Assembly (NCBI RefSeq): GCF_050920415.1 | Contig: NZ_CP169309.1 | Strand: one strand, 5' to 3' | Source of the DNA: Escherichia coli | GTDB taxonomy: Bacteria; Pseudomonadota; Gammaproteobacteria; Enterobacterales; Enterobacteriaceae | DNA: 64,000 nt | Shown: piece after piece, positions 2,341-54,950 of the stretch | Layout: each line of letters starts with the position of its first letter | Position numbering within the stretch: position 1 is the stretch's first letter | Program-made: the position numbers and the translations under genes | The notes under the pieces: model-generated | The model's database searches: none | What the model saw: only the letters and a program-made list of their open reading frames with translations | What the model was told of the DNA's origin: nothing

Positions 2341-4209
2341 TTAAATTTCGACCTGAGTACCCAGTTCGATAACCCTGTTTGGCGGGATTTCAAATTGATC
2401 CGGTGCGCGCAGCGCATTACGTTGCAACAGCAAATACAGCTTGCCGCGCAAACGCAAATACCACGGACGTTTGCCGAGGATCAGTGATTCATGCGACATA
2501 AAGAAGGAGGTTTCCATCATCCGGCAACTTAATCCTTCCAGACCACAGCGGTGGAAAACTTCTTCCACGTTTGGCGTTTCCCGCCATCCATAACTTGCCA
2601 CCACGCGCCAGAAAGTGGGCGACAGTTGTTCAATCTGTACCCGACGGACGTTATGGACATATGGCGCGTCTTCAGTGCGCAGAGTTAACAGAATCACCCG
2701 CTCATGCAACACCTTGTTATGTTTCAGGTTATGCATCAGTGCAAAGGGAATGACGTTGATTGCACGCGACATATACACCGCGGTCCCTGGCACGCGAACG
2801 GGCGGTGATTTCTCCAGCGAAGCAATCATCGCTTCCAGAGAGTTGCCATGTTCATGCATCCGCCGCAGCAAGCGGAAACGCTCGCTCTTCCAGGTCGTCA
2901 TCACGATAAACATTACCGTACCGAGACTCAGTGGCAACCAGCCGCCTGATAGCAGTTTATCGAGGTTAGCGGTGAACAATGGAATATCAACACAAAGGAA
3001 AGCAATCAGGATCAGCGCAACAAAATACTTATTCCAGTGCCAGTTCTGACGTGCCACGGTAGTTGAGAGAATAGACGTCAGTACCATGGTTCCGGTCACC
3101 GCAATCCCGTACGCCGCCGCCAGGTTGCTGGAGTGCTCAAAGCTGACAATCACAATCACGACCGCGACATAGAGCATCCAGTTCACAAACGGAATATAGA
3201 TTTGCCCAGACTCCATTTCGGAGGTGTGAATAATGCGCATCGGCGACAAATATCCCAGACGTACGGCCTGACGCGTCAATGAGAAGACGCCAGAGATAAC
3301 TGCCTGCGAGGCAATTACCGTCGCCAGTGCGGCGATGATCAGCAGCGGGATCAGCGCCCAGTCCGGTGCCAACAGGAAGAACGGGTTCTTAATCGCTTCC
3401 GGGTTCTTTAACAACAGAGCGCCCTGGCCAAAGTAATTAAGAGTTAATGAAGGCAATACGACGGTGAACCACGCCAGGCGAATCGGGAACTTACCAAAGT
3501 GCCCCATATCAGCGTACAGCGCCTCGACACCGGTAATCGACAGCACCACTGCCCCTAACGCAATAAACGAAACCGTTTTATATTCAAGGAAGAAATGCAC
3601 CGCCCACATCGGATTCAGCGCATGCAGCACTTCTGGGTTAGCAATAATGCTACGCAACCCCAGTCCCGCCAGAATCAAAAACCAGGTCAGCATGATAGGC
3701 GCAAACAGCTTACCGACCATAGCAGTGCCATGTTTTTGAATCATAAACAGTAAAGTCAGAACGATGATTGAGAGGGGAACTATCCAGGTATCCAGCTGCG
3801 GGGCGACGATTTCCAGACCTTCAATGGCAGACATCACCGAAATAGCGGGTGTAATGACGACTTCACCATAGAAAAAGCTGCCGCCGATTAATCCCATAAT
3901 CACCAGCATTGATGTGGTTCGCGCCGACGTATTGCGTCCGGCAAGCGACATCAACGTCAGAATGCCCCCTTCCCCGGCGTTATCTGCCCGCATCACGAAG
4001 GTGAGATATTTAATGGAAACCACAAAGATTAGCAGCCAGAAGATCAGCGATAAAAAGCCAAACACGGCATCGCGTTCAACGCCAAAACCAAACTGGCCGG
4101 ACAAACATTCACGAAGTGTATATAACGGGCTGGTACCAATATCGCCGTAGACAACTCCAATCGCCGCGAGGGTAATCGCGGGCAACGATTGCTTATTATC
4201 AGTGCTCAT
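2341..4209 (-). CDS. kup: Low-affinity K+ uptake transporter Kup (TrkD)
   Basis: 622 aa polytopic membrane protein starting [30 protein letters not shown]; position next to rbsD. Confidence 0.95.
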
Positions 4210-52476: not shown

Positions 52477-53648
52477 ATCGTTCGGAAAGCAATATTAAAT
52501 GCTTTTTTAAAGATTATAAATTACGTAAGAATTTTAATGTTTAAAAAAGGCTTGAGGAATAACAGGAATACTAACAATAAAGCGAAGCCGCGTCTGACAG
52601 TCAGAATGCGGCTTCGATACAGAAGCTGGAAAATCGAGCTAACTCGTTAATCTATCAGCGATACGTTGCCTTGAAAACATGGCTATGGGCACATTCAAGG
52701 ACACAAAAACCATTTTGTTCACAATGGCTGGTGGAACCACGGTTAAAACCATCACTCTATGAGGGCTTAGGGAAGTTCAGCTTTTATTGCAGATGTTCCC
52801 ATAATGGCAATAGCTTTTGTCAATGAATCGAGCCTCCTGAATAACTGAGCGGGCGATTTTATGCAGCGCGCATAGCTCCTTGATATGAGGCGATAAGCAT
52901 AGTTTTTGCGTACTGACTTGCGCTATAGTCCCCACGTTGCGGCAAAACCGCAACCGGAATTGGCGTTCCGAATTATCACGAGTGTCGGTAGCGATGTTTG
53001 CAGTGCTACTGGCGCGGCCTGCGCTCGCCCCTTCAATGGTGGCTCAGGCAGGGGCTTCGAAAGAAGCGCCGGGTCGTGATAACCGGTACGCCAACCCTGT
53101 CTGGGTCACCACCAGTGAGCCAGGCGTCTCCGGTGGTGGCGTTAACCTGCTTATCACGAAGCGGAGCGTTGCGTATGTGTCCTGTCCCTGAATTTCCCAT
53201 TGCACCAGCCTCCGCCGGAGGTATCTATGAAAATCACCGTAGAACAACCCTCAGCCAGAGAACTAGTCGATCGCTCGCGAGTCCTGGTGCATGTGATGCT
53301 CGAGCATCCTGACGATATCGGCCCGAATTATGCGTTGCTTCTCATCCTCGCCGACCAGCTACAACTATTAAGGGATGCTTTTGAAGAGGATGAGGTCAGA
53401 CGGCTTAGAGATGAGAAATTACCTCAGTAATTCTTACTGCGACCACAGCATCAGGGACAGATGTTGTGGTTGATTCCCCCACCTGCTTTTCCCTGGCTGG
53501 CTCCCCCATATTCTCTGAGGTGAATTCCATGAGCACAGCAATGGCGCGGGTTGAAAGGGCATCCCCCATCTTTCGCTGTTAAAGGTGAATAATGTGGGGG
53601 GAGTCGAGTACCTGTCAGTGTATCCCCCACATATTCCGGGTTCCACCA

Positions 53649-54950
53649 TCATTCCCCCGTATCCGGGAGCCGGATCTGTTCTCCATCGAGCACAATCAGT
53701 TGCTCGCGCAGCAGCTTCTCCAGCCAGCGCGAAAATTTCTTCTCGACGTTAATTCCCTTTGCGCGTAGATCGTCGCGCAAGAGCGCGCGGGTACAAGGCT
53801 TATTCTGGCTGATGCGTTGGTTAATACAGCGCCATAACGCCGTATGGTTGCGGGTGATATGAGGAACGTCGGGTGGTATGCCACTACTCAGTAAGTCATC
53901 GTCAGGTTGCCTAGGCTCGTCATTCAGCACCATTGAGGTCACTGGTTCGCCATCGCTATCGGTATAGATAACGACTTCCTCAAGATCGTAGGCGGTGACC
54001 TCCGGCATCTCCGCATCTTTCATCTTTGTACAACTCAGGGTGATAGCGTTGCGACGTCCCTCGCGCCTGACGTTAAACTCGGCATCCAGCGCAGCCTGAA
54101 AAGCACTTGAACCGCGTGCGCCCCGTTCCTGATCCTTACCCGAATGATGAACGATCATCATCGCTGCGCGCGTATGATACCGAATGGCGTCGCAACCCTA
54201 GATAAATGCGCCCATATCCCGCGCGGTGTTTTCATCTGAATTACCAAAACAGCGGGCCAGCGTATCGAGGATGATCAGCCGTACCGGCATTCCGGTCATG
54301 TTCTGAATGTCCTTTGCCGCCAGGATCACCTGCTCGATGCTTCCTGGAGCGGCTGGAAAGATCGGGCAGTCGACGCGAAACAGGTTATCGAGCGCCATCT
54401 CGTCATTAACGCTGAGTTCCCAGGCGCGGATCCGCCGCGATACACCGGTTCCTCCTTCTCCGGCGATAAACAGCACTGCTCCTTGATTGACTCGCCTTCC
54501 ACCCCATGACGTACCGCTTGCAATATGGCACGCCAGCGATACTGCCAGAAAGGATTTAAAACAGCCGCCGGGGCCGTAAATACTGCACAGCGTCCCGGCG
54601 GGAATAAGTCCTTTCACCAGATAATCCTGACTGGTGTTAAACCCTTCCGAGCCCCGGCGCAGCGGAAGGGTGGTGGTGAGAGTACGGTCTGATGCTGTCA
54701 TAGCTTACGACCTGAGATTTGCAGGAAGCTGCTGGTTGAACACAATCCGGGAAATGGATTCACCGTAGTGACGGTAAAATTCATCCCAGTCGCTCAATGT
54801 GGTGTCTGCAGGGAGAACCACACAGCCCTTCACTACCTCGGCAGCGGCGGTTGCATTCAGCAACCCGGTATTTTTCTCCTGACTGCAATCATTATCGCCA
54901 GCCAGGATAAGGTGGCATTCAGGCCACTGCGCCCGGAAAGCGATGGCCAC
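53649..54950 (-). pseudogene. P4 alpha-like primase/helicase remnant (Toprim + RecA-like/AAA_25 ATPase), 5-prime truncated and broken by in-frame stops
   Basis: Three same-frame ORFs: 54705..54950 (Toprim-like HLILAGDND), 54198..54701 (P-loop GPGGCFKS, Walker B LIILD) and 53649..54161 (HHSGK motif); they are separated by a TAA at 54705..54707 and a TAG at 54198..54200, and no N-terminal primase domain is present. Confidence 0.65.

Follow-up and report, generated by a model that had tools for sequence, protein, structure and literature searches.

The repeat array and its position in the island

The sequence analyzed here, a 64,000-nucleotide (nt) stretch of the Escherichia coli chromosome (NCBI RefSeq assembly GCF_050920415.1, contig NZ_CP169309.1) that we refer to as the window and that was 100% identical to strain MFDS1022581, carried an island of about 7 kb that was integrated between tnaC and mnmE. 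The minus strand of this island contained a pseudogene of the "helicase RepA family" (rep; 53649-54701), which encoded an RSF1010-RepA-type (RecA-fold) helicase and ended in a stop codon at 53649-53651. An in-frame stop interrupted rep at 54198-54200, where the intact copy in Salmonella houtenae had Gln. A P4-alpha-type Zn-ribbon/Toprim primase was represented on the same strand by a remnant (54705-55007) of its ~100 C-terminal residues, and the N-terminal ~230 residues were deleted. On the side opposite rep, a conserved open reading frame (ORF) of 67 amino acids (aa) (53227-53430, plus strand) was transcribed towards the same intergenic region, and short G-rich repeats occupied the 219 bp by which the two convergent genes were separated. 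As argued below, this array is very probably the origin of replication that belongs to the primase-helicase replicon of the island, a reading that draws on comparative sequence analysis and that places the array among origins with the architecture of phage-inducible chromosomal islands (PICIs) and Staphylococcus aureus pathogenicity islands (SaPIs).

The initial annotation of this region had described six (A/T)TCCCCCA repeats in an AT-rich context at the 3′ end of the primase/helicase remnant. The six repeats were real and the location was correct. Exact TCCCCCA copies were found at 53475, 53502, 53562, and 53623 on the plus strand, a fifth copy that ended in G (TCCCCCG at 53653) overlapped the last rep codons (...ACG GGG GAA TGA on the minus strand), and the sole inverted copy, TGGGGGGA at 53595-53602, had six G nucleotides. 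The base preceding the motif was T, C, A, A, and T in turn and hence not always A or T. The invariant unit was the hexamer GGGGGA (TCCCCC on the plus strand), which occurred six times within 53475-53658, five times in the orientation of rep and once inverted.

As previously proposed, the density of the repeats was far above chance. Specifically, 6 of the 18 GGGGGA/TCCCCC sites in the window (both strands) fell within 196 bp, compared to an expectation of 0.056 sites per 200 bp (Poisson P = 4e-11, or 1.3e-8 when multiplied by 320 windows). When 18 sites were placed at random 5,000 times, no 200-bp span received more than 3 sites, and none of 20,000 shuffles of the array region reached 6 sites. 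In contrast, the AT-rich context was not confirmed because the intergenic region was 53% G+C, compared to 47.6% for the window.

The arrangement of the six copies was ordered. With positions counted from the end of the rep stop codon, iteron 1 (GGGGGA, 53653-53658, minus strand) was located at offset -10, within the last rep codons, and iteron 2 (atgtGGGGGAtac, 53623-53628, minus strand) was located at +20. The inverted iteron 3 (53597-53602, plus strand; TCCCCCCAC when read on the minus strand) at +46 and iteron 4 (agatGGGGGAtgc, 53562-53567, minus strand) at +81 formed the left and right arms of a core palindrome. Between these arms was a 29-nt core spacer (53568-53596) that was 66% A+T, was centred on TTTAAC, and is most likely the melting site. 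A 54-bp gap (53508-53561; 50% A+T) separated this first set from iterons 5 (atatGGGGGAgcc, 53502-53507) and 6 (aggtGGGGGAatc, 53475-53480), which were both on the minus strand, at +141 and +168, respectively.

A 13-bp hairpin (53440-53472) lay between the stop of the 67-aa ORF and the last iteron, and the minimum free energy of the whole fragment was -23.3 kcal/mol (z = -3.85). The hairpin was stable, marks the boundary of the predicted origin, and is a probable transcription barrier or terminator, although it was not a canonical intrinsic terminator because it had no clear U-tract. A Citrobacter relative (L009) had a hairpin of different sequence at the equivalent place. A scan for promoter and terminator consensus sequences found no terminator, including at the hairpin, and one weak promoter-like site at chance level. 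No RNA family was found in the array in an Rfam scan at gathering thresholds, and no full DnaA box or integration host factor consensus was present in 53400-53700, where only TTATTCAC was found. There was no second GGGGGA cluster in the window or in any of the related loci described below, and a literature search with the iteron string GTGGGGGA and the word "iteron" returned no paper.

Related loci and iteron classes

A blastn "distant" search with 53400-53700 found the array region in only 2 of 5,426 E. coli genomes, and the comparison was therefore anchored on the helicase protein. A helicase-alignment scan of 100,044 species genomes (one genome per species) yielded 80 loci. An uninterrupted copy of the helicase, 97% identical, was found in Salmonella enterica subsp. 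houtenae ATCC BAA-1581 (L003), with a complete 327-aa primase ahead of it and the same repeats behind it. In total, 35 or 36 of the 80 loci, from about 24 genera and with helicases that were 58 to 99% identical, had GGGGGA motifs packed into the 340 bp after the rep stop codon. The hosts included Citrobacter, S. houtenae, Kluyvera, Klebsiella indica, Photorhabdus, and Morganella, as well as Serratia, Pectobacterium, Erwinia, Pantoea, Dickeya, and Yersinia pestis. The density of GGGGGA after rep was 18.4 per kb, compared to 0.28 per kb elsewhere in the same loci, and each relative had four to nine copies.

The layout was conserved along with the motif. The first set of iterons was located at -10, (+2), +12 to +20, +46 to +51, and +81 to +85, with the copy at +46 to +51 inverted in most GGGGGA-class relatives. 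The second set, past a gap of 54 to 55 bp, was located at +141 to +146, +168 to +173, and (+182). The gap length was kept in about two-thirds of the GGGGGA-class loci, and the elements of Serratia, Pectobacterium, and Morganella, like most of those of Erwinia, had gaps that were 70 to 80% A+T. In an alignment of ten genera, the invariant columns were almost exclusively in the motifs, and the spacers had diverged freely. The position of iteron 1 was filled in nearly all of the GGGGGA-class relatives, and iteron 2 formed an invariant block of columns in the ten-genus alignment. All six motifs in the window copy were intact and at the family positions.

The length of the G-run within single iterons varied from five to seven among copies that were >96% identical (window 53596-53601; L002 8655-8700; L003 9060-9210; L008; L033). 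This variation could reflect either slippage or variation that Rep recognition tolerates.

Loci with helicases that were about 57% identical or less had different iterons in the same layout. GTGAGGA iterons were found in 19 Xenorhabdus loci, AAGTGCGGCA iterons in Kosakonia, Enterobacter soli, Phytobacter, Rosenbergiella, and a plasmid-like element of Klebsiella pneumoniae, and GTGCGCA iterons in Hafnia. Two further classes were AAGTGGGGA (Kosakonia, Superficieibacter, and Kluyvera) and AAAGTGAG(G) (an E. coli O145 island of the capsid-forming PICI [cfPICI] type and an Oceanospirillaceae metagenome-assembled genome). The half-site AAGTG was common to all of the classes and the other half varied; the 10-nt consensus of the GGGGGA family was AAGTGGGGGA. 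The core was also common to all classes, as an inverted iteron was followed 26 to 29 nt on by a direct iteron, and most loci of the other classes had the inverted iteron. Among 66 loci, the core spacer was 28 nt in 33 and 26 nt in 21, and it contained TATA in 50. The usual spacer was of the form ACTT...TATATA...AAGT; the window's clade had the TTTAAC-centred spacer instead.

Rep and the predicted origin

The helicase core of Rep matched RSF1010 RepA (PDB 1g8y, E = 2e-8). The last ~70 codons of rep encoded a predicted winged-helix domain, and we modelled the last 95 residues (53652-53936), referred to here as the tail. The AlphaFold2 model had the order helix-helix-helix-strand-strand, with predicted local distance difference test values of 86 to 90 over residues 31 to 90 and a model mean of 75.1. 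Nearly all of the Foldseek matches to the tail were winged-helix proteins and most of these were DNA binding (DtxR/IdeR, LexA, histone H1, and ORC). The matches were generic, with no specific relative, and the P4 origin-binding domain was not among the top matches. The third helix of the tail contained the nearly invariant sequence K-x-F-x-R-W-L-x-K-L. In the case of the primase, the intact L003 protein matched residues 1 to 313 of P4 alpha (35% identity, E = 7e-53). The helicase and tail showed no similarity to P4 alpha (best E = 0.12). In Serratia and other hosts, primase and helicase were fused into one 678-aa protein. By homology, then, the replicon is a mosaic of an alpha-type primase and a RepA-type helicase with a predicted winged-helix tail.

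The third helix of the tail varied with the iterons. KKF[S/T/A]RWL was found with GGGGGA, KNFSRWLT with GTGAGGA, RKSFPRWLD with TGCGGC, and KHFxRW with GTGGGGA. In two pairs of loci (L048/L073 and L060/L062), the helicase cores were 94 to 96% identical, the tails were 54 to 62% identical, and the iterons differed. In these alignments, the iteron class follows the C-terminal domain of Rep and not the helicase core. This link argues strongly that the tail would read the iterons, but it falls short of proof because the tail adjoins the origin, and a single recombination event can move both.

Previous work on satellite elements has described origins of this kind. In Gram-negative PICIs, the origin is immediately 3′ of rep and has two iteron sets that flank an AT-rich region, and EcCICFT073's pri-rep-ori drives plasmid replication (Fillol-Salom et al., PMC6092414). 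SaPI Reps are helicases that load themselves and that bind penta- or hexanucleotide iterons through a winged-helix domain at the C terminus (Qiao et al., PMC9371898). The SaPI origins have 6 to 12 iterons immediately downstream of rep, an AT-rich centre, and opposite iteron orientations on the two sides (PMC9371898).

We infer Rep binding, DNA melting, and origin activity as follows. Rep would be a hexameric RepA-type helicase that uses the helix K-K-F-S-R-W-L-x-K-L of its C-terminal winged-helix domain to recognize the iterons. Its assembly would take place on the head-to-head pair 53597-53602 and 53562-53567, which encloses the A+T-rich core of 29 nt, and on the direct copies that flank this pair. 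Rep would then melt the DNA and load itself, and the alpha-type primase would prime synthesis. In the window, the putative origin is an orphan because a stop codon interrupts rep and part of the primase is deleted. Such an orphan would be unable to fire in cis and would need a cognate Rep in trans; activity under those circumstances is conceivable. The comparative evidence was strong for the part of the initial annotation that had described an iteron array, now a vestigial origin, next to a replication gene.

The initial annotation had likened the array to P4-type ori/crr, with the repeats as iterons bound by the C-terminal domain of an alpha-type primase-helicase, and we compared it to the crr and ori octamers of the annotated P4 genome. 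The resemblance was partial. Both are satellite-type integrative elements, the array lay directly 3′ of the replication gene as crr lies immediately 3′ of alpha, the island primase was homologous to alpha residues 1 to 313, and the island had an antisense RNA of the C4/CI type along with an ash gene. The predicted origin also contained, on the minus strand, one TATTCACC (53585-53592, in the core spacer), which in P4 crr is a variant with the label "ori type 1 repeat" and which also comes close to a DnaA box (TTATTCAC), and one AATTCACC (about 53527-53534). These TTCACC octamers are probably there by chance because they were kept only within the >96% identical clade and were absent from the other relatives. 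However, P4 alpha combines primase, superfamily 3 (SF3) helicase, and C-terminal origin-binding domain in one protein, and the helicase and tail found here were unlike it and matched RSF1010 RepA. Moreover, the P4 type-1 octamer is TGTTCACC and occurs in two regions 4.5 kb apart, whereas the repeated and conserved unit here was GGGGGA in a single cluster, with no ori plus crr. We rejected membership in the P4 ori/crr type, as alpha matched the primase but not the helicase, TGTTCACC was not the repeated unit, and no second cluster was present; what survives of the P4 comparison is the crr-like position and the alpha-like primase, and we regard the P4 reading as very improbable. An 11-mer, CATTATTCACC, was common to the array and P4 crr.

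A protein-binding array with no role in replication, such as a partition or centromere-like site, a set of sites for the conserved 291-aa integrase-like protein or for the Ash/helix-turn-helix regulators, or a transcription barrier between the convergent operons, is also improbable, although somewhat less so. The position of the array between convergent units and next to a strong hairpin fits this explanation, as does the integrase-like gene upstream of the primase that is common to GGGGGA-class elements. Yet the same layout followed rep in two cfPICI-type elements (L004 and L005) that had neither the integrase-like gene nor ash, the iteron class switched along with the C-terminal domain of Rep, and the layout matched that of functionally proven PICI and SaPI origins. 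As for chance, slippage-prone poly-C/G low complexity, or a small conserved ORF, the variable G-runs noted above and several overlapping ORFs of 54 to 72 aa could be cited in favor. This explanation was effectively refuted by clustering and conservation: in addition to the clustering statistics, motifs and offsets were kept across about 24 genera while the spacers diverged. A conserved ORF was ruled out because one-base G-run indels between close relatives (>96% identical) break any reading frame. The initial annotation had staked its case on finding the repeats in related islands and outside conserved coding sequence, and both were found, the former in 35 or 36 loci.

Several observations weigh against an origin of the PICI/SaPI type. 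The Foldseek E-values for the tail were weak (0.03 or higher), and the match between tail and iteron class could partly reflect adjacency and co-inheritance. The Rep of EcCICFT073 is a different allele that has only an N-terminal 125-aa segment in common with the Rep of L005, and the tie to a proven origin is therefore one of organization only. Because Rep is a pseudogene in the window, the array has no present function in cis. The gap was only 50% A+T, and the TATATA centre was missing in the window's clade. Lastly, two loci from Sodalis/Enterobacterales (L018 and L019) kept the KKFSRWL helix and had no GGGGGA array; these origins appear truncated or replaced, or they may have another specificity, set by altered first two helices. 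At the stop codon of both loci (4023-4100 in each), there were just two TTCAAGG(A/C)A copies, after which the two sequences diverged from each other.

With these points considered, the origin reading annotates a noncoding feature that automatic pipelines leave blank, although the window copy itself is predicted to be inactive in cis. It also indicates that the island with retron St85 goes back to a satellite-like element able to replicate itself, which is still present in intact form in S. houtenae and Citrobacter. The family offers a natural series for the reading of origins by initiator helicases, with at least five iteron classes, matched changes in the predicted recognition helix, and module swaps. 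In addition, it suggests a rule for finding origins, namely, an inverted pair of short repeats 26 to 29 nt apart directly after the rep stop codon. More tentatively, and with the balance against it, the array and its ~35 homologues may represent a replicon family, widespread among enterobacteria, that we did not find described. Its helicase, of the superfamily 4 (SF4)-like, RecA-fold RSF1010-RepA type with its own winged-helix tail, would load itself at a palindromic iteron pair flanking TATATA. The family would have a naturally swapped recognition code (residues around the F-x-R-W-L helix versus the variable half of AAGTG-NNNN-A), and its orphan origins could be fired in trans and would amplify the adjacent retron St85 in situ.

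The island and comparison with known replicons

The remaining features of the island included a frameshifted tyrosine integrase on the minus strand and a complete retron St85 (55775-57906, minus strand), with effector at 56710-57672, reverse transcriptase at 55775-56710, and msr at 57837-57906. An STnc400 match (57710-57834, minus strand) is probably the msd region of this retron. The retron had the island integrase on one side and what is left of the replication module on the other, and the decayed replicon now carries a defence system. An EFASI RNA (55042-55172, minus strand; Rfam RF02957, 90 bits) was located immediately upstream of the truncated primase, and ~630 bp around it (55016-55641) were also present in a few other E. 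coli genomes without the helicase.

On the converging side, an antisense immunity module in the style of P1, P7, and P4 occupied 52923-53430 on the plus strand. It consisted of a1b1 targets (52923-52974), a C4 antisense RNA (53032-53116), and a degenerate ash gene, followed by the 67-aa ORF. In the relatives, the cargo found between the predicted origin and the ash/C4 module differed from host to host. In S. houtenae, the cargo was a KAP-family P-loop NTPase (L003 9355-10677). In E. coli RM9088 (L002 3218-7916), it was a ShET2/EspL2 effector pseudogene and an ATP-binding/AAA pair, and an HNH endonuclease was found beyond the ash module. This position looks like a cargo or defence hotspot. A short integrase-domain protein (~291 to 298 aa) was encoded just upstream of the primase in all three GGGGGA-class elements examined (L023 410-1288; L038 382-1278; L003 6142-7017), on top of the full-length integrase at the element end.

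At the level of the element, PICIs have int, alpA, pri-rep, and packaging or interference genes (terS, capsid, and ppi), and a helper phage induces them. The island comprised int, the retron, primase and helicase remnants, ash, and the C4 RNA, and no alpA, terS, or capsid genes were found among the annotations of the island or of the intact S. houtenae copy. It is not a canonical PICI; as it also had no sid, delta, or psu, it is not a canonical P4-like satellite either.

In EcCICFT073, rep was directly followed by GTCTACC/GGTAGA iterons that ran in both orientations. Its "DNA primase family" Rep, an allele that differs from the Rep described here, and the otherwise unrelated "helicase RepA family" Rep of L005 had N-terminal domains of ~125 aa (L088 7242-7616 and L005 5575-5950) that were 62% identical. 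In a blastn search with the RepA-type allele, this N-terminal segment was also matched by E. coli genes that carry the annotations DUF927 and DUF5906, which points to a modular adaptor domain.

The cfPICI-type elements L005 (E. coli O145 RM9154) and L004 (K. pneumoniae pKp_Goe_795-4) had "helicase RepA family" Reps that were homologous to the Rep described here, tail included (53 to 55% identity). After the stop codon, they had the same order of direct, direct, inverted, core, direct, gap, and direct copies. Their iterons were AAAGTGAGG and AAGTGCGGCA rather than (A/G)TGGGGGA, their Reps had an extra N-terminal domain of ~120 aa and no alpha-type primase, and the elements encoded capsid and terS.

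Like IncQ plasmid RSF1010, the island combined a RepA-family helicase with a separate primase. IncQ origins have iterons of ~20 bp that are bound by a separate initiator, RepC. In contrast, the iterons described here were 6 to 10 bp, and the helicase had its own predicted DNA-binding tail; a RepC-type initiator was not seen in the genes that were examined, among which no specific search for RepC was made. Classical iteron plasmids (RepA, pi, or TrfA) have 17- to 22-bp iterons, a nonhelicase initiator, and DnaA boxes. The array differed in these respects, with an iteron core of 6 nt (10 nt in the consensus) and no full DnaA box in 53400-53700.

The closest agreement was with PICI and SaPI origins. 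Like these, the predicted origin was immediately 3′ of rep, with the first iteron in the last rep codons and the array extending to +173. It had six hexanucleotide iterons in two sets, with one iteron (53597-53602) in the opposite orientation, and the initiator was a helicase with a C-terminal winged-helix domain (predicted in this case). Different Rep alleles were also associated with different iterons. As for the AT-rich centre, the 54-bp gap was 50% A+T in the window and 70 to 80% in many relatives, and the 29-nt core was 66% A+T. The differences were that Rep was of the RecA-fold RSF1010-RepA type (SF4-like) rather than AAA+ (SF3/MCM-like) as in SaPIs, and that, compared to PICI elements, the island was without packaging, capsid, or alpA genes and its Rep was a pseudogene. 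The fit to the SaPI description is feature by feature, except for A+T richness and the helicase superfamily. The finding is ordinary in kind, an expected variant of PICI/SaPI-type origins, and its added value is modest and consists of the family-wide architecture and the series of iteron classes and Rep C-terminal domains.

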